DNA from: a virus
Taxonomy: Duplodnaviria > Heunggongvirae > Uroviricota > Caudoviricetes
Direction: 5' to 3' (one strand)
DNA length: 49,359 bases
Virus record (IMG/VR): IMGVR_UViG_2875722834_000005
Location: 1 to 49,359 of that record
The position numbers were made by a program, and so were the translations under genes. Shown piece by piece: positions 556-41,129 of this stretch (the first letter of the stretch is position 1; each line of letters starts with the position of its first letter). Below the pieces are notes generated by a model. It saw only the letters and a list, made by a program, of their open reading frames with translations, did no database searches and was not told the DNA's origin.

Positions 556-583
556 TTCTCCTGTTGTAAAAACAGGAGAAGAG
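556..583 (-). promoter_or_regulatory. Inverted repeat (about 11-bp arms) overlapping the invertase ribosome-binding site
   Basis: TTCTCCTGTT..AACAGGAGAAG palindrome seen directly; 3' arm contains the AGGAGAA Shine-Dalgarno 7 nt upstream of the invertase ATG. Confidence 0.4.
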
Positions 584-740
584 GCGAAATATCACCTGAT
601 TCAGAAAAATATTTGAAAGGTTGGTTTGGGAGAAGCGGCAAAACGGGATGTGGGAACAGGGGAAAATCAGATACCGGATATGGCTTTTTTTGCCAGTGGT
701 GATGGATGGATGAAATTACCCAACGGTAAAATCCTGCAAT

Positions 741-977
741 ATGGTCGAGGTGCGGTTACGCCGCCGAGGTATCGATACAATTGTGTTATGTGGGATCTCG
801 ACCAATATCGGTGTTGAATCCACCGCCCGCAATGCCTGGGAACTTGGCTTTAATCTGGTGATTGCCGAAGACGCCTGTAGTGCCGCCAGCGCCGAGCAAC
901 ACAATAACAGCATTAATCATATCTACCCGCGCATCGCCCGTGTGCGTAGCGTGGAAGAGATCCTTCACGCGTTATGA
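741..977 (+). pseudogene. 3' fragment of isochorismatase-family hydrolase (YecD/YcaC-like), N-terminus missing
   Basis: Translation [18 protein letters not shown]...AEDAC matches the conserved C-terminal half of isochorismatase-family proteins; no in-frame N-terminal half upstream. Confidence 0.55.
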
Positions 978-29612: not shown

Positions 29613-29886
29613 GATTTTGTCCCTCGTTATAGCTACATCTAGCTCAAAAACAAAACAACAAACACAAGATGTAGTGATTTACGGTCTTTAAATACACGAA
29701 AAGCCTCAAAACGAGGCTTTAAAAGAGTCTTTTTGATAAAGAACTAAACAGACTATAGCGAGTCAATTACAGATTTGACAAGTAAAAAAGGGATTAAAAG
29801 CTCATAAAAACGGCTTTTTTGGATTATTCATCATCTTTTTTGATGCACGTAACAATCCAAATATAAAAACAAAGTTTTGACAAAAA

Positions 29887-29904
29887 ACCCGCTCGATGGC
29901 GGGT
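29887..29904 (-). terminator. Hairpin ACCCGC-N6-GCGGGT with flanking A/T runs about 65 nt downstream of the Q-position gene (late-region regulatory element)
   Basis: Seen directly; on the minus strand followed by TTTTTTG. Confidence 0.45.
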
Positions 29905-29970
29905 TCTTAATTCTTTGTCGACCTACGAAGCTATGGCGACGATATCAGATTTACATGAAATATATGCGTT

Positions 29971-30660
29971 TCAATCCAGTTTTGCAAGACTTGAGTCTAA
30001 ATTTGTCGCCTTTTGTTGTGAACGTGATCGCGTAACCTGCAATAAAGCCCCGCTATCCAGTCGCAGGAAGATGCTGCGCATCTCAACCCAGCGGTCAGTA
30101 AAGGTCTCTGACCAGTTTTTTGGCGTTACGCCAACCAGCGACGCCAGCGCCTGATATTCGTACGTCTCACGCCCTGCCAGCTCTGCTTTCACGTCCTGAG
30201 CCGCGAGCCAGACAAGCTTCTTCAGGCGCTCCATCGTTTTGCCGGCCACCTTCTTCGCGCCGAGCTGCTCCCGGAACTCTGCCCACGCCCATTGAGTGAT
30301 TTCCACCTGATAGCACCAGCGCACGTTCTCGCTATAGTTCCATAGCAGCCACGCTTTCTGATGGTCTTCAAGCGACAGAACAGCGCGGCGCCACGATGCG
30401 GTCCCGTACTCTACCGGGCCCACCAGCGCGATAGACGAGCCCTTAGCGCGGGACTGGTTGCCGCTCATCGGCTGGCCGTCAGGATTGACCATGCGCTGCT
30501 TATCCTTGTCGAATACCTTTTTCCGGCCCCGACTCCGCGCCGTTGCGGTGAATTGCGCGTTCTCGGCGAAAGCTACCAGCTGCCCTTTCGTCGCCCCGCT
30601 GAGGTCTGCGGTCGCCACAATGAGCTGCTGACGTACGTATTCCAGTTGCTGACTGTTCAT
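29971..30660 (-). CDS. Putative late-gene antiterminator Q (assigned by position; family unconfirmed)
   Basis: 229-aa ORF between ninG and the late/lysis region; no similarity to lambda Q seen by eye. Confidence 0.45.
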   Translation of the reverse strand: MNSQQLEYVRQQLIVATADLSGATKGQLVAFAENAQFTATARSRGRKKVFDKDKQRMVNPDGQPMSGNQSRAKGSSIALVGPVEYGTASWRRAVLSLEDHQKAWLLWNYSENVRWCYQVEITQWAWAEFREQLGAKKVAGKTMERLKKLVWLAAQDVKAELAGRETYEYQALASLVGVTPKNWSETFTDRWVEMRSIFLRLDSGALLQVTRSRSQQKATNLDSSLAKLD

Positions 30661-32684: not shown

Positions 32685-32930
32685 ACGCCACCTCCGAGAG
32701 GTAACGCAGAATGCAAAAAATCGCAGGTGCATTTCTGCATCTGTGACAAAGTGAGGAGTTCAGATTGTGGTCGCATTTAAGTCCCCTTAAATGCGCAGAA
32801 GTCACCGGAGTTGTTCAGGCTCCGATGACATGATTATGGACGGTTGATTCAACAAAATCAACGCGAGAAAAAGGCCTCCGGAGAGGCCCTGGCTGTCGAT
32901 ATGGGGATTCCCATATCGCTTGTATGGCAG

Positions 32931-36085: not shown

Positions 36086-36834
36086 AGGAAGTCCTCCCAG
36101 CCTTCACGGCTATTCCAGTGCGGGGTTTCTGGCTCACTGCGGCTGCGCTTTGATGCCAGGGGGTTAACGCGGGCGTTTCGGATCCAGACGCGGAATGCTG
36201 AATTCCAGTCAATCAGGGTTGTGCCTCGCGCTGTGTGGTAGTCACGGAAGTTGAGCAGCTCGGTTTCTATGCTGACCCCTTTCTCGGCAGCCATGGCGAT
36301 ATGCTCTGCAGAGGGTTTGAATTGAGCGGGAAAAGGAATTCCACTGCCAGTCGGCAGGCCCATTCTTGTCTTCGCTGCTTCGCTCATAAATCCTTCGCGC
36401 CCAGAGAGAGAGTTAGGTTCATTGACTGGTTCAAAAGAGTGACTGATTCTGGGTGCAGCTCCTGCACTACCCCCTAGTGAATCTCCTGCACTAGGTAGTG
36501 AATCTCCTGCACTAGGTAGTGAATCTCCTGCACTAGGTAGTGAATCTCCTGCACTAGGTAGTGAATCTCCTGCACTAGGCAAGGTGAGGATGTAGATGTT
36601 TGTAGAATTGCCTTTCGGCCCCTTCCTGAAGACTTTTTTCAGCAATCCTGACTGGCAAAGATCATCAATGTGGCTCATGACTGAACGCTTGCTGATTTCG
36701 CACTGGTCAGCGATGTATTGATAGCTAGGCCAGCACTCACCCTGATCGCTGGCATTGTCAGCAAGCTTCAGGAGAACGAGCTTACGTAATGGGTTGCCGA
36801 CCTTAATTTGCATGGCTTTCACCATTAACATCAT
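36082..36834 (-). CDS. O: Replication initiator O-like protein (HTH N-domain, iteron-encoded linker)
   Basis: Position between cII and P; HTH N-terminus; contains 21-bp iterons; start approximate. Confidence 0.7.
36459..36580. repeat. Origin-type iterons: 21-bp direct repeat CTCCTGCACTAGGTAGTGAAT, 4 perfect plus 2 imperfect copies, inside the O-like gene
   Basis: Seen directly; encodes (LPSAGDS)5; analogous to ori-lambda iterons within O. Confidence 0.7.
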
Positions 36835-37012
36835 GCTCACTATGAGTTCTCCTGTTCTGCTTGAAGATGATTTCCACACACACATACACGCACTCATCAC
36901 AGATACATGCGCCATCTCCTGTGATGATCGTTGCAACGTCGTTATTGGTTTTCCCGCAAAACGAGCATTTGTGAGTGGGATGTGGGTTTGCTTTTCCTGA
37001 CTGGTTTGGCAT
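36803..37012 (-). CDS. Small protein with ClpX-type C4 zinc-binding domain
   Basis: [29 protein letters not shown] aligns with the ClpX N-terminal zinc-binding domain (CSFCGK..ICDECV); lies between cII and O. Confidence 0.55.
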
Positions 37013-37033: not shown

Positions 37034-37333
37034 TTAAAAATCCATCGTTATTTGGTCTGATCGCTCGGTTGCCGCCGGGCGATTTTTCTTTGTGAGCACC
37101 GCAGCTACTTCTCTTGCCAGCCGCGCCATATCGTCATCAACGACACCCCATTCCAGAACTGCCAGTAGCATCGACAGTTTAGGCAGCATGCTTTCCTTCC
37201 AGCGGGTAATACCCGACTTATCCATCCCCAATGCCTTTGCAACGTTAGAGGCACCGCGAATAGCAATCTGATTCAGGATCCAGGACTCAATTTTTCGAGC
37301 CTGGGCTTTGTTTCGGGTAGTTGTGTTTTCCAT
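37034..37333 (-). CDS. cII: Transcriptional activator CII
   Basis: Near-identical core to lambda CII (SMLLAVLEWGVVDDDMARLAR). Confidence 0.9.
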   Translation of the reverse strand: MENTTTRNKAQARKIESWILNQIAIRGASNVAKALGMDKSGITRWKESMLPKLSMLLAVLEWGVVDDDMARLAREVAAVLTKKNRPAATERSDQITMDF

Positions 37334-37362
37334 TAGTTAAAATCCTTAATAAGTTGTTGAGT

Positions 37363-37412
37363 CGGCTGACGAATCAGCCGAGTAAATTTGGGTTCCATGT
37401 TGTTAAAGAGCG
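37363..37412 (-). promoter_or_regulatory. nutR-like element: boxA CGCTCTTTAACAA plus downstream 7-bp stem hairpin
   Basis: boxA consensus read on the minus strand at 37400-37412, 8 nt after cro stop; hairpin CGGCTGA-TTCG-TCAGCCG at 37363-37380. Confidence 0.45.
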
Positions 37413-37419
37413 GTAGTAC

Positions 37420-37608
37420 TTACGGGGTTTTGCTGTGCGGGAAAGGCTTGATTTCTTCAGCCTTGATTTTCCCGTCGGGCAGTCGGTTGATAAAAATCTG
37501 ACGCCCAACCCTAATTGCCTTGCTGATTGCCGTCTGGTGTACACCGATAGCGTCAGCTGCTTTGGCCTGACCTACCTCGCCAACAAACTCAGCTAAAGAA
37601 ATCTTCAT
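37420..37608 (-). CDS. cro: Cro repressor
   Basis: 62 aa; GQAKAADAIGVHQTAISKAI matches the lambda Cro HTH; KPFP tail. Confidence 0.85.
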   Translation of the reverse strand: MKISLAEFVGEVGQAKAADAIGVHQTAISKAIRVGRQIFINRLPDGKIKAEEIKPFPHSKTP

Positions 37609-37638
37609 GTGGTTGCTCCTTTGAGTGCATAACCAAAC

Positions 37639-37677
37639 AATACCAGAAGTATTACATAAAGCAATACCTGCGGTATT
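37639..37677. promoter_or_regulatory. OR operators (two clear AATAC-N5-GTATT sites) within the PR/PRM region
   Basis: AATACCAGAAGTATT (37639-37653) and AATACCTGCGGTATT (37663-37677) between cro and cI starts. Confidence 0.6.
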
Positions 37678-37711: not shown

Positions 37712-38422
37712 ATGGAAAAGAAAAAGATTCTCACCCCCGCTCAAGTGGCTGATTCACAGCGTTTAAAAGCCCTTTACGAAGCGAAGAAAAAAGAACTGGG
37801 TATTACTCAGCAATCCATTGCGGACGCGCTGGACATTTCTCAGGGTGCCGTCGGCCATTACCTCAATGGAAGGAATGCCTTAAATACAGCGGTAGCATCG
37901 GTCTTTGCCAGGCTTCTTGGGGTTAGTGTCTCTGATTTCAGCCCGTCACTTGCGAAGGATATCTCTGATATGAGCTCGGTGGCGTCGGAAAATACTTCTT
38001 TCGCAGGGCATTATTCACCTGGCTCAAAATATCCGGTGATTAGCAAAGTTCAGGCGGGCGCCTGGTGTGAAGCTGTTGAGCCGTACACCCTTAAAGATAT
38101 CGACCTTTGGCTTGAATCAGATGCTCACATTCAGGGGGAGGCGTTCTGGCTGCAGGTTGATGGTGACTCAATGACGGCGCCAGCTGGCTTGAGCATTCCT
38201 GAAGGAACCTTTGTCCTCTTCGATACTGGTCGGGAGGCGATCAACGGAAGCTTGGTAATAGCAAAGCTATCCGATTCTAACGAGGCGACTTTTAAGAAGC
38301 TGGTGATCGATGGTGGGCAGAAGTACCTGAAGGGCCTTAACCCGCAATGGCCACTCGTGCCGATTAATGGTAACTGCCGTATCATTGGTGTAGCTGTAGA
38401 GACGAAGCTGCGGCTGGTCTGA
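37712..38422 (+). CDS. cI: CI repressor (HTH N-domain, S24 self-cleaving C-domain)
   Basis: Lambda CI-like blocks (KKELGITQQSIAD; FSPS; VQAG; GDSM; TFKKL); no leader before ATG, as for PRM transcripts. Confidence 0.9.
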   Translation: MEKKKILTPAQVADSQRLKALYEAKKKELGITQQSIADALDISQGAVGHYLNGRNALNTAVASVFARLLGVSVSDFSPSLAKDISDMSSVASENTSFAGHYSPGSKYPVISKVQAGAWCEAVEPYTLKDIDLWLESDAHIQGEAFWLQVDGDSMTAPAGLSIPEGTFVLFDTGREAINGSLVIAKLSDSNEATFKKLVIDGGQKYLKGLNPQWPLVPINGNCRIIGVAVETKLRLV

Positions 38423-38571: not shown

Positions 38572-39051
38572 ATGGATAAAATTAATTACCCACCCCTGTT
38601 TGAGCCACGGTTCCATGACATGGATGAAGCTGGATTAAAATCGTATTGTGTCGATTGCTTTCCTTCATCATCCAGGCGAGGCATGCTATACTGTAATTTT
38701 ATACAGCTACTCGAATCTATTCGAGAATTATCTGCTCAATATGGCTGTTTTACAGAAATATGGGTTGATGGTTCATACACCACGTCTAAACCAGAGCCTG
38801 ATGATATTGATATTTTGTTGGTATGTGACTATAGCAAGATAAACTCAATACCTGTCATGCTTCGGGGCCGCGTCGATAATTTGCTTGACCGAAACTACAT
38901 CAAACAAAACTACAAAATTGATGTCCTACTACTCATGAAGAATTTAGATGACCCTAACTATGATTATGAGTACTGGCGTAGCTACTGGCGCGGTTGGTTT
39001 GGTTTTGATCGCAGTGAAAACCCGAAAGGGTTAGTGAGGATTTTTTTATGA
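38572..39051 (+). CDS. Minimal nucleotidyltransferase-fold protein (159 aa), first gene of operon in rexAB-equivalent position
   Basis: GS-x8-DDIDILLV with downstream KIDV fits the Pol-beta NTase hG[GS]..DxD..D signature; AT-rich; downstream of cI. Confidence 0.55.
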   Translation: MDKINYPPLFEPRFHDMDEAGLKSYCVDCFPSSSRRGMLYCNFIQLLESIRELSAQYGCFTEIWVDGSYTTSKPEPDDIDILLVCDYSKINSIPVMLRGRVDNLLDRNYIKQNYKIDVLLLMKNLDDPNYDYEYWRSYWRGWFGFDRSENPKGLVRIFL

Positions 39052-39980
39052 ATGATAAATCAATGTTTAAAAATTGCGATAAACGCATTGATTTCATTCA
39101 AAAAGAAGTCGATGCAATGAAGCAAAACAAAACCAGGTCCTTTGCTGACATGCTTCTTTATCGCTCCATGGATTCTCATCTGAGCGATTTGAAGGCCGAA
39201 AAATTAAAGCAAGATAGTCGGCACCCACTTATCGATTTTTTTGAGCTGCGGCTGAAAGGCTCTGAGGTTGACTTTGGCTCTATTCCTTTAGAGCTGCTTG
39301 GGGCTATTTCAACAAATCTTGCAGCGCTAATACAAAGAGCAACACACAAAATTGCCTCAGGCAAGGACTCAAAAAAAGTTCCCTACGACGTGAAAAGCTC
39401 CTTAAACCTCAGGCTGGCTGATTTATCCCCTGGGTCTACAAAATTGGGCGTCACCTTCTCTACAGGAATAGCAGAATTAGTAGAAACAGTACCCAGCAAG
39501 GCTGTAAAAGGCATATTCGATTTGTTGTTAAGCGATGACGACAACAACTTCATGAATCACGTCGCTGAAATTGGATACAATTCCACTGTAAGCCTTAAGA
39601 GAATCGTAGAGGAATGTGATAAACACAACTTAACATTTGATGCAAGTTGGACCGGTCCATTTAGTAATGGCACCAAGGTGGCAACTATTGACTCCAATAA
39701 AATTAAGTACTTGGTGAGTAGACTTACATCAACCATTTCATCCCCTCCCATTACTGAAACGGTTACAGGCGAACTGGTCGTTCTATCCAAATATGGGAAG
39801 CTGGAGCTTGATGTTGGTGGTGAACATTTAAAGGCTTCCTATCCGATTGAAATGCTAGATTTAATACAAAAAAAACACAAGGTCGGACAGATTGTTTCTC
39901 TTTTAGTGGAGACTACTGAGATTCACAATGATCGCATAGGTCTGTACCGTAAAAACCATCTTGTTAAATCGGTTCTTTAA
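39048..39980 (+). CDS. Hypothetical 310-aa partner protein, translationally coupled to the NTase-fold gene
   Basis: Start ATG overlaps upstream TGA (ATGA); no recognisable motifs; followed by a strong terminator. Confidence 0.55.
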   Translation: MNDKSMFKNCDKRIDFIQKEVDAMKQNKTRSFADMLLYRSMDSHLSDLKAEKLKQDSRHPLIDFFELRLKGSEVDFGSIPLELLGAISTNLAALIQRATHKIASGKDSKKVPYDVKSSLNLRLADLSPGSTKLGVTFSTGIAELVETVPSKAVKGIFDLLLSDDDNNFMNHVAEIGYNSTVSLKRIVEECDKHNLTFDASWTGPFSNGTKVATIDSNKIKYLVSRLTSTISSPPITETVTGELVVLSKYGKLELDVGGEHLKASYPIEMLDLIQKKHKVGQIVSLLVETTEIHNDRIGLYRKNHLVKSVL

Positions 39981-40014: not shown

Positions 40015-40212
40015 ACCCTTCCGCACCATCTCAGCCGCATGCCTGTTAGCTCCCTTCCCTATCACGTTTCCTGTTTCCTTCCGGTACTGCTCCAGCTTGT
40101 CGATGATGTTTTGCTGGGTCATAGGTAAATCTGCCAGTGACAACTCCATGACCGCCCGCCCCATCGCCTGAATTTTCATGCTTATACGCTCTTCATCCAG
40201 AACCATGCACAT
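40009..40212 (-). CDS. Hypothetical small protein (67 aa) antisense to the PL direction (weak call)
   Basis: ORF only; between the operon terminator and OL. Confidence 0.25.
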   Translation of the reverse strand: MCMVLDEERISMKIQAMGRAVMELSLADLPMTQQNIIDKLEQYRKETGNVIGKGANRHAAEMVRKGK

Positions 40213-40274
40213 CCCTCCTGCTGTTTTTTTAAGCGTAGCACTGGTATTTACAAAAATAAAATCACATCAAATTC

Positions 40275-40343
40275 ATACTCTTAGTATTAATCAAAGATTT
40301 ATTAATACTGGCGGTATTGCTATATATTAATACCGCTAGTATT
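40275..40343. promoter_or_regulatory. OL operators (three ATAC-N5-GTAT type sites) / PL region
   Basis: ATACTCTTAGTAT (40275-40287), AATACTGGCGGTATT (40304-40318), AATACCGCTAGTATT (40329-40343); same consensus as the OR sites. Confidence 0.55.
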
Positions 40344-40475
40344 GTTACCCCATCGAAACGAAACATCGACAGCTGAGCGAAGTTAGCCAGCGGAGAAGTT
40401 GAGATTCGGTCAGTCGAACGGCGCGACAGTAAACCATGCGTCGGACCATAGGCGGGCTCAGGAAGAGCGGCAATT

Positions 40476-40760
40476 ATGGCTAAACGATTTACCAGCAGCT
40501 CTTTGCGAGGGGCTGACGGTAAACAAACAGAGGGGTGGAAATCATGCTTGGGTGTGAAAAGTGCGACCACGGATTCGTGTTCACCAGATGCTGTTCTGGT
40601 CTTGCTGAAATGTGTGGATGCGGCGGAATGCCGGTTCAGGCCACTAATTGCAAGAACTGCAATCCAGAGAATAAAGAGCCGGATGACGCGGAGACAGAAT
40701 CGCTTCTCCAGTATGTCGAATGGGTCGATTGATCAGCATTTCTCCCGCATCAGCGGGTAA
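40476..40760 (+). CDS. Hypothetical first gene of the PL operon (N-antiterminator position; identity unconfirmed)
   Basis: ORF only; an overlapping alternative Cys-rich frame (40535-40732) cannot be excluded. Confidence 0.25.
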   Translation: MAKRFTSSSLRGADGKQTEGWKSCLGVKSATTDSCSPDAVLVLLKCVDAAECRFRPLIARTAIQRIKSRMTRRQNRFSSMSNGSIDQHFSRISG

Positions 40761-40777: not shown

Positions 40778-41107
40778 ATGAAAATTGGGGTGCATGATGG
40801 CATTCACTTCGATCCTGATGACGAGTTCAAAACAGAGATAAACCCCAAGGCTTTAGCGGCTCTGATAAAGCAATACAAGCACTGCTGTCGAATGACTAAG
40901 CATTGCAGCTCAGTGGCAGCATACCGCCTCTGCCCTCACGAATTGGCAAGAGCAAAGCAATACCAGACTCGTCGCGATCACCTTGAAATATTCCTTCGGC
41001 TACTCCACACCGAAAGCAAGGAATATGACATTGAGGAAATTGACGATCACTTCGGTGGTGAAGTTGACGACTGGTCGCTAATCCTAAAAGACAAGGTCCC
41101 AGACTAA
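40778..41107 (+). CDS. Hypothetical protein (109 aa)
   Basis: ORF with RBS, followed by a terminator. Confidence 0.5.
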   Translation: MKIGVHDGIHFDPDDEFKTEINPKALAALIKQYKHCCRMTKHCSSVAAYRLCPHELARAKQYQTRRDHLEIFLRLLHTESKEYDIEEIDDHFGGEVDDWSLILKDKVPD

Positions 41108-41129
41108 CCCGCTCCGGCGGGTTTTTTTA
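41106..41129 (+). terminator. Rho-independent terminator (tL1-like position)
   Basis: CCCGC-TCCG-GCGGG followed by TTTTTTT. Confidence 0.6.

Follow-up and report, generated by a model that had tools for sequence, protein, structure and literature searches.

Introduction

Early antitermination in lambdoid phages follows one of two textbook arrangements, with the early operons served either by N and nut sites or, as in HK022, by a put site in each operon. Here we analyse a 49,359-nucleotide (nt) stretch of DNA from a virus of the Caudoviricetes (positions 1 to 49,359 of the IMG/VR record IMGVR_UViG_2875722834_000005; the whole stretch is called the window hereafter) whose early operons seem to follow neither of them. 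The transcript of the left promoter (PL) carries a put RNA, and the transcript of the right promoter (PR) carries, directly after the cro stop codon, a consensus boxA followed by a hairpin (37363-37412, minus strand). We know of no description of such an arrangement, put on the left and a consensus boxA on the right. An earlier note on this DNA had read the boxA and the hairpin as a nutR-like site consistent with N-type antitermination.

Described systems close to it include, besides the nutR sites of N phages, the put RNAs and the boxA sites of host operons. The put RNA of HK022 binds the zinc-binding domain of the beta-prime subunit of its own RNA polymerase and suppresses pausing and termination without protein factors, the cis-acting readthrough of terminators being dependent on that domain (PMC9378689). 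NusB:NusE binds the boxA of rrnG with a dissociation constant of 5-8 nM, compared to 80-90 nM for the boxA of lambda nut, and binding to the rrn-type boxA is thus about tenfold tighter (PMC2800207). The rrn boxA, which has an extra U, binds NusA without a spacer, unlike the lambda boxA, which according to the authors 'may explain why lambda requires N', and this structural work suggested boxA affinity as one of the features that substitute for N (PMC2724277). In CRISPR (clustered regularly interspaced short palindromic repeats) arrays, boxA alone gives a Nus-dependent antitermination directed against Rho (PMC7665894). At suhB and hisG, boxA with NusB/E promotes Rho termination and represses translation (PMC12360218).

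Results

A put RNA on the left and an orphan boxA on the right

We read the window as that of a lambdoid prophage of the HK639/phi80 regulatory type devoid of N, in which a put RNA serves the left operon and a remodelled nutR serves the right operon by loading Nus factors of the host alone against Rho; our confidence in this reading is about even. More tentatively, we propose that the nutR was turned into an N-independent, rrn-like Nus-loading site, its boxA perfected and its boxB neutralised, and that the two early operons are antiterminated by two protein-free devices.

By its homology with HK022 putL, the put RNA (40413-40485) would bind the RNA polymerase that made it and carry it past the terminator (41106-41129) and further downstream. 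On the right, the single-stranded boxA would be captured by the NusB:NusE (S10) of the host while the PR transcript is emerging, and NusA, NusG and probably SuhB would join, resulting in an rrn-like, Rho-resistant elongation complex that requires no phage protein. This complex would form exactly at the untranslated C-rich, G-poor stretch where Rho would otherwise load, as at lambda tR1. The hairpin, at the position of the old boxB, would be a structural accessory that may keep boxA unpaired or may act as a NusA-contact or pause element, and would not be a loop-specific protein site.

The boxA-hairpin module in the PR transcript

Transcription from PR runs on the minus strand and that from PL on the plus strand; PL is placed past two accessory genes located 3' of cI, and the replication genes lie 3' of cII (Table 1). 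The two probable promoters have the same hexamers and operator-like TATTAATA/GGTATT motifs in common. PR transcription would start near 37630, which would put boxA at about +220. The perfect boxA reported by the earlier note after the cro stop codon is present at 37412-37400, at a distance of 7 nt instead of the 8 nt given there, and the hairpin with a UUCG loop and a stem of 7 base pairs (bp) was recovered as described (37380-37363). Only 29 nt separate this hairpin from the cII AUG at 37333, so that the module is contained within the gap between cro and cII.

The boxA is an exact match to the consensus GCUCUUUA(ACAA), including the extra U that is typical of rrn-type sites and missing from the lambda nut boxA, and in every variant of the module it is predicted to remain unpaired. 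By its sequence, the module qualifies as an rrn-type boxA site. The exact 12-mer GCTCTTTAACAA has a single occurrence in the 49 kb window, all other copies having at least 2 mismatches, and by our own arithmetic about 0.0015 occurrences of an exact 13-mer are expected by chance on both strands. The palindrome GGCTGA-N4-TCAGCC is also unique in the window, other matches carrying 2 mismatches and lying in unrelated regions. With boxA kept single-stranded, the hairpin folds better than 200 of 200 shuffled sequences (z = -3.1).

The module is embedded in a C-rich, G-poor stretch. Windows of 78 nt taken there contain C at 0.33 and G at 0.13 and rank in the top 1-2% of C>G skew in the whole PR operon. 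This composition resembles that of Rho utilisation (rut) sites and is expected of a Rho loading site such as lambda tR1; Rho may therefore load here.

The PL leader carries an RNA of the put family

The PL region (about 40019-40537) shows 88.6% DNA identity to HK639 across the feature annotated in that phage as 'putL-like antiterminator RNA'. Our statements on HK639 rest on its GenBank annotation, and King et al. 2011 reportedly defines HK639 putL. The PL promoter of the window aligns with the annotated pL of HK639 and phi80, and in an alignment with the HK022 immunity region the leader of the window aligns with both putL and putR. Eight put sequences were aligned (window/HK639, five prophage variants, HK022 putL and HK022 putR); the consensus forms two stem-loops, with compensatory changes at 7 of the 17 predicted pairs, all of them in stem II. 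A custom covariance model (R1) built from this alignment matched the window once, at 40413-40485 on the plus strand (88.6 bits, E-value 2e-22), and its next-best score there, inside the Q gene, was 11.8 bits. As estimated from the promoter hexamers, the matched segment lies ~60-135 nt 3' of the PL start. On these grounds we assign the PL element to the known put family as a new member.

No putR was detected in the PR operon or at the cro-cII junction: with filters off, R1 gave no minus-strand score above 11.8 bits in the window. In a set of 94 related loci, put was found in the PL orientation only, the sole exception being HK022, which has putR. Rfam scans at gathering and E-value thresholds returned nothing at the PL or the PR site and reported no put or nut family; Rfam has no put model. 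The terminator that the earlier note had located at 41106-41129 corresponds to a terminator-like site, likely the first target of put.

Several other aspects of these leaders were observed. In phi80, HK639 and dozens of prophages, the PL transcript opens with nearly the same ~45 nt (CAUCGAAACGAAACAUCGACAGCUGAGCGAAGUUAGCCAGCGG). What comes after them in the leader is of at least five types, being either put or one of various boxA-like versions of UGCU(U/C)(U/A)UUAA(C/G)AA, and the boxA-like part is labelled "putative nutL" in the phi80 annotation. The third stem-loop of the window leader has a degenerate boxA-like GCUCUUUG in its stem, and this stem-loop is also present in the non-put leader of the related locus L096. 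A second, partial element resembling put stem II (31.6 bits) is found about 500 nt 3' of the main put in the PL operons of L019 (956-986, minus strand) and L060 (146-176, minus strand).

Search for an N protein and a nutL site

The earlier note had found neither a convincing N gene nor a plus-strand boxA in the PL leader, and both observations hold. A scan of the PL leader for YGCTCTTTA on the plus strand was empty, and no nutL was found in the window, where every other boxA-like copy has at least 2 mismatches and the GGCUGA hairpin is not repeated. Pfam and PHROGs gave no N match among the open reading frames (ORFs) of the PL operon, and the homology search that had been suggested for these ORFs found no N homologue. 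When a hidden Markov model of the N family (47 N proteins) and phmmer were run against all six-frame ORFs of the window, the best E-value was 0.36, in a tail gene; the phmmer queries were lambda N (in a possibly inexact sequence), the lambda-like N of locus L026 and HK022 Nun, whose sequence is 100% identical to that in the HK022 locus. Searches by tblastn and phmmer with lambda and P22 N (possibly inexact sequences), HK022 Nun and the N proteins of relatives were negative for the window. Scanning for arginine-rich segments revealed none in any ORF placed to be N; the R-rich stretches that were found lie far into reading frames or in frames without a preceding start codon. Combined, these results suggest that the phage encodes no N protein. 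That N and nutL are missing is explained by the put RNA carried by the PL leader.

The individual candidates gained no support. The 94-amino acid (aa) ORF, listed by the earlier note among its candidates, starts within structured leader RNA; the apparent conservation of its N-terminus in HK639 and in locus L006 is conservation of the RNA, stops where the RNA stops, and the frames diverge immediately afterwards. The Cys-rich frame, offered as another candidate, is not supported either. This 62-aa ORF matches phrog_28167 (unknown function) and no Pfam family, and both it and the 109-aa ORF have no match to an N family and are absent from the other loci examined, including those carrying an identical module. 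The phi80 protein annotated 'N' could not serve as a model, as it resembles none of the window ORFs, matches no N family in Pfam and has an N-terminus that is not arginine-rich, and its annotation was not relied on. Among 22 distinct module-bearing loci, no ORF family is common to the PL-proximal regions, the best being present in 10 of the 22, with PL coverage of only 1-2 kb in most of these loci.

The fallback offered by the earlier note, that the system may work differently, agrees with what was found: PL has a put RNA of the HK022/HK639 type and the PR site looks N-independent. For annotation, a boxA after cro in a phage that lacks N need not mean that an N is hidden, and the PL leader should be inspected for put.

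Distribution and conservation of the module in relatives

To sample relatives, IMG/VR was scanned for Cro homologues picked without reference to boxA. The 80 loci obtained fall into three classes according to what follows cro. The boxA-spacer-hairpin module is present in 22 of them (Class A); 29 have a long hairpin without boxA (Class B), among them L026, which encodes a lambda-like N; and the remaining 29, as HK639 and phi80, have no gap after cro (Class C). A pattern scan anchored on boxA and spacer also revealed the module behind several other, different upstream genes, and the gene 3' of it is either a lambda-type cII or a different gene (MQSLTYQH...). No copy was found in complete E. coli genomes, and the only species-representative genomes that have it are those of Escherichia sp. 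E1V33 and Siccibacter colletis.

At least 14 distinct sequence variants of the module occur in related prophages. The boxA core is invariant in all of them, while the 7-nt linker, the loop and the flanks vary. Counted from the first base of boxA, the start of the hairpin falls at position 32 in every variant. In the stem, six of seven pairs hardly change, and covariation is seen at the basal pair (U-A/C-G). Ten loops are found in 14 sequences (UUCG, UUAG, UUUA, GUAA, GCAA, GGAA, GAAA, GUGU, GUUA and AUUCUC), and in one variant, that of L094 and L131, an unrelated hairpin-forming sequence takes the place of the module hairpin. Because the loops include UNCG, GNRA and other types, the loop is not read, and its free variation among relatives is incompatible with a loop-specific reading by an arginine-rich motif of N. 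The pattern indicates that boxA and a hairpin as such are under selection, and it argues against loop-specific recognition.

In the Class B loci (L023-L053), a covarying long hairpin, GCUGAAUUGAGCAGUCAGCGGGUUCUGACUGAGUAAUUCAGC, replaces boxA at about 10-55 nt after cro. These phages have the same Cro and CII families but lack a PL leader of the HK639/phi80 type, and the lambda-like N of L026 begins with MAKRRAEAAQNEARKAE. The Class B hairpin is probably a boxA-less nutR.

The module is a nutR by descent

Locus L006, whose module is identical to that of the window, encodes an N protein (Pfam N_peptide, 69.6 bits; arginine-rich motif GRRRERRAALQ), and 80 loci of this N family were retrieved of 203 hits. 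The nutL and nutR sites of the family have boxB sequences GGCUGAAAAGCC/CGCUGAAAAGCG, or GCGCUGACAAAGCGC for the 933W-type motif, and the type of boxB tracks the type of arginine-rich motif of N. The nutR of the family reads UAAGUAACACCGCU(C/A)UUUUCACAAUGGACAUUCGUCCUACGU-boxB. As in nutR sites of the 933W/H-19B type and of the lambda type, the module lies directly 3' of the cro stop codon in the order boxA, spacer, hairpin, and its hairpin begins, like the boxB of 933W-type sites, at nucleotide 32 from boxA. The blocks UAAGUA..ACCGCUCUUU..ACAA..UGGA..(C/G)GCUGA are common to the module and the 933W/H-19B nutR. Judged by this block-by-block alignment with the nutR of the N family, with the hairpin in register, the module is a nutR by descent.

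The conserved parts are inverted, the boxB loop being conserved in the N-type sites and boxA in the module. True N-type nutR sites (933W/H-19B) have an eroded boxA (CGCUAUUUUCACAA, ACCUCUUUUCACAA, CACCACUCACAA) and a constant boxB loop, GA(C)AAA. Unlike them, the window has neither an N gene nor a nutL, and its boxA is a perfect rrn consensus; the spacer hairpin GGACAUUCGUCC of the N-type sites is lost, and the N-type boxB loop is replaced by two extra base pairs and a freely varying tetraloop. Of the four features of an N/nut system, the window has a boxA just after cro and lacks the other three, namely a constant boxB loop read by N, an N protein with an arginine-rich motif and a matching nutL. 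The nutR-like description of the earlier note therefore stands for position, layout and partial sequence homology to the nutR of N phages; N-type antitermination is not supported, as the loop varies freely.

The N of L006 was rejected as the partner of the module. L006 is the only one of the 80 N-family loci to carry the module and lacks the nutL of that family, whereas the other 79 are without the module and use their own boxB sites. L006 itself (565-924, minus strand) joins in one locus a put RNA, the N gene (N_peptide) without its family nutL, and the orphan boxA module. Another locus, L101 (898-1248), encodes an N/Nun hybrid with an N-like centre, a C-terminus like that of HK022 Nun, and a remnant AAGHRKSKQLTAR in another frame. 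Both loci are examples of decay or repurposing of an N gene.

Alternative readings of the module

The module could be a working nut site for an unrecognised RNA-binding antiterminator of the phage, a non-homologous analogue of N that reads the GGCUGA/UCAGCC stem and acts with Nus factors. This is unlikely, though the least unlikely of the alternatives. It would account for the lambdoid nutR position and ancestry of the module, for its almost invariant stem and fixed spacing, for a conserved 5' hairpin of the PL leader with a similar stem (AGCUGA-GCGAAG-U(U/C)AGCC), and for two immediate-early PL ORFs without known function. These two ORFs, however, occur in no other locus examined, including the loci with an identical module; the PL-proximal regions of module-bearing phages have no ORF family in common, with PL coverage mostly at 1-2 kb, so that a distal gene may have escaped; the PL transcript of the window has no second hairpin or boxA copy; and the loops are unconstrained. 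The resemblance of the PR hairpin to the conserved hairpin of the PL leader is suggestive, but it is not general, L096 and L112 having the module without a similar PL hairpin; we treat it as unproven. With suhB and hisG as a precedent for repression by boxA and NusB/E (PMC12360218), the module could also be a negative element, NusB/NusE bound to boxA lowering cII translation and promoting Rho termination at the cro-cII junction, which would set the cro:cII ratio without an override by N. The strongly rut-like region fits this proposal, as does the position of the module, 66 nt ahead of the AUG in the 5' leader of cII, a regulator of lysogeny. Yet the module is not tied to one downstream gene, the replication genes and Q need PR transcription, a stable hairpin intervenes between boxA and the ribosome-binding site, and this boxA also stands at the head of early operons in lytic SP6-like phages, for which attenuation would make little sense. 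We rank this proposal after the N analogue and regard it as improbable.

More doubtful again is a non-functional relic of an N-dependent nutR, left behind when recombination swapped a left arm with N and nutL for a put-type arm. Decay would be expected of a relic, whereas the boxA is perfect and invariant in at least 14 variants behind different upstream genes while its neighbours vary; boxA is the very part that decays in genuine N-type nutR sites; and the boxB loop was replaced by extra base pairs and stable tetraloops and was not randomised. What speaks for a relic is the clear homology to N-type nutR together with the mosaic nature of lambdoid genomes, the union of put, an N gene and an identical module in L006, and the existence of relatives that manage without any PR site. 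As to DNA-level function, conserved arms around a free central spacer are typical of palindromes bound by proteins, and the GGCTGA-N4-TCAGCC repeat could be a DNA site for a dimeric DNA-binding protein. However, its distance from an RNA signal is fixed, it belongs to the transcribed strand of an untranslated gap, and it has no second copy in the window. Its basal pair covaries, and in L094/L131 it is replaced by an unrelated sequence that forms a hairpin at the same place. We rejected this reading, which we consider highly improbable.

The reading that we prefer, a put RNA on the left and a host-only Nus-loading site on the right, also has points against it. The stem sequence is near-invariant in 13 of the 14 variants, with covariation limited to the basal pair and one replaced hairpin, and this could mean sequence-specific recognition by another factor. 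HK639, phi80 and 29 of the 80 Cro loci have no element after cro, and because such close relatives do without one, the module is dispensable in the HK639/phi80 lineage. L006, with an identical module, does encode N. Complexes of the rrn type are weak against intrinsic terminators, and boxA alone may not explain the expression of Q, which is preceded by a strong intrinsic terminator (32889-32868). Q expression may not depend on the module, as a promoter-like site follows this terminator and an analogous terminator is present in HK639, a phage without any PR site. Finally, boxA can act negatively, as at suhB and hisG (PMC12360218).

Other features of the window

Table 1. Positions of the features of the two early operons and of the immunity region in the window
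Feature	Position	Strand	Remarks
Q late antiterminator gene	29971..30660	-	Pfam PF06323, 291.6 bits
Promoter-like site TTGATT-17-CATAAT	32861-32833	-	follows terminator 32889-32868
Strong intrinsic terminator in PR operon, GGGCCUCUCCGGAGGCC + UUUUU	32868..32889	-	upstream of Q
cII gene, 99 aa	37034..37333	-	next gene 3' of module; Pfam PF05269, 119 bits
C-rich, G-poor (rut-like) stretch	37347..37454	-	cro 3' end, boxA, hairpin and start of cII leader
Hairpin CGGCUGA-UUCG-UCAGCCG	37363..37380	-	at boxB position; 7 bp stem, 8 bp counting U37381-A37362
Spacer CAUGGAACCCAAAUUUACU, 19 nt	37381..37399	-	between boxA and hairpin; fixed length, unstructured
boxA CGCUCUUUAACAA, 13 nt	37400..37412	-	perfect rrn-type consensus
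cro stop UAA	37422-37420	-	then 7-nt linker GUACUAC before boxA
cro gene, 62 aa	37420..37608	-	first gene of PR operon; Pfam PF09048 Cro, lambda-type, 79.8 bits
Probable PR promoter	37637..37664	-	-35 TTGCTT 37664-37659, -10 TATTGT 37642-37637; predicted, read off the sequence
cI	37712-38422	+	lambdoid immunity region of the window
Probable PL promoter	40317..40345	+	-35 TTGCTA, 17 nt, -10 TATTGT; start near 40352
Conserved 5' domain of PL leader, CAUCGAAACGAAACAUCGACAGCUGAGCGAAGUUAGCCAGCGG	40350..40395	+	common to phi80, HK639 and many prophages
put antiterminator RNA, two stem-loops	40413..40485	+	homologous to HK022 putL/putR and HK639 putL-like RNA
94-aa ORF	40476-40760	+	start falls inside structured leader RNA
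Third stem-loop UUUACC...GCUCUUUG...GGUAAA	40488..40519	+	inside 126-nt HK639 'putL-like' annotation
Cys-rich 62-aa protein, probable first PL gene	40544..40732	+	ribosome-binding site GAGGGGUGGAAAUC before ATG; not N-like
109-aa ORF	40778..41107	+	no family match; not N-like
Intrinsic terminator-like site, tL1 analogue	41106..41129	+	likely first put target

In the PR operon, a perfect palindrome hairpin, CGAUAUGGGAAUCCCCAUAUCG (32918-32897, minus strand), lies 5' of the intrinsic terminator, and a near-identical palindrome, CGATATGGGAATTCCCATATCG, comes after the boxA module in L094/L131. The sole hit at the Rfam gathering level in the window is to isrJ (29883-29955, minus strand, 58.7 bits), immediately 3' of Q, with terminator-like hairpins at 29886-29905 and 29720-29700. 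It looks like a Q-modified late leader (6S-like RNA) of a prophage rather than a chromosomal small RNA.

Antisense to the cII 3' end, a terminator-like hairpin followed by a T-run (37059-37084, plus strand) has the layout of the lambda OOP and phi80 M3 antisense RNAs. Between cII and the replication gene, a 69-aa ORF (36803-37012, minus strand) consists essentially of a ClpX-type C4 zinc finger (PF06689, 51.4 bits) and could act on ClpX as an adaptor or an inhibitor. Five tandem 21-bp repeats, CTCCTGCACTAGGTAGTGAAT, coding for LPSAGDS repeats within the O-like replication gene (36470-36580), are probably origin iterons. Between cI and PL, at the position of rexAB, two genes (38572-39980, plus strand) match the PADLOC candidate defence system PDC-M63 (A, E-value 7e-40; B, E-value 7.5e-45); the first corresponds to Pfam DUF6932, and the region is 99.4% identical to phage mEpX1.

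Comparison with known systems

The arrangement of the window, with put on the left and an orphan consensus boxA and hairpin on the right, would be a third one for lambdoid early antitermination. If host factors alone act at the PR site, it would be a natural case of a phage borrowing the antitermination machinery of ribosomal RNA operons against Rho, and an evolutionary intermediate that reveals which features of nut substitute for N.

A related use of boxA may exist in SP6-like Autographiviridae. The early leader of Lelliottia phage phD2B (L132, 701-722) contains a 22-nt UACCGCUCUUUAACAACAUGGA identical to that of the window, located between a host-type promoter and the first gene, and Pectobacterium phage PP1 (L133, 701-730) has a 19-nt core of this sequence within a 30-nt match of 93% identity. 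To our knowledge, phD2B and PP1 encode no N. The sequences suggest that an extended boxA motif is used by N-less phages, and these leaders are a possible precedent for the host-only mechanism proposed for the module. In both phages, CCGCUCUUUAACAACAUGGA, corresponding to the boxA of the window and its 3' flank, follows a sigma70-type promoter and precedes the first early gene. Phages of Klebsiella, Serratia and Erwinia gave matches to the same stretch by blastn only.

The module shares with rrn and CRISPR-leader sites an identical 12-nt boxA, GCUCUUUAACAA, in a promoter-proximal position on the sense strand; as in those leaders, no dedicated phage protein would be needed, and Rho-dependent termination is the expected target (PMC2800207, PMC2724277, PMC7665894). 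Unlike the rrn sites, it belongs to a protein-coding phage operon and follows a translated gene, about 220 nt from the start of transcription; its hairpin is 3' of boxA, the rrn boxB being upstream, and no boxC was recognised. It is similar to the suhB site in that a consensus boxA lies in the untranslated leader at the 5' end of a gene (PMC12360218), and differs from it by a stable hairpin and 66 nt between boxA and the start codon and by the essential early genes on its 3' side. As for the put systems, the PL leader of the window belongs with HK022 and HK639 by sequence, two-stem structure and covariation. In HK022, putR occupies the spot where the window has the boxA-hairpin module, and the segment 37363-37412 is not a put RNA; HK639, like the window, has put in the left operon only.

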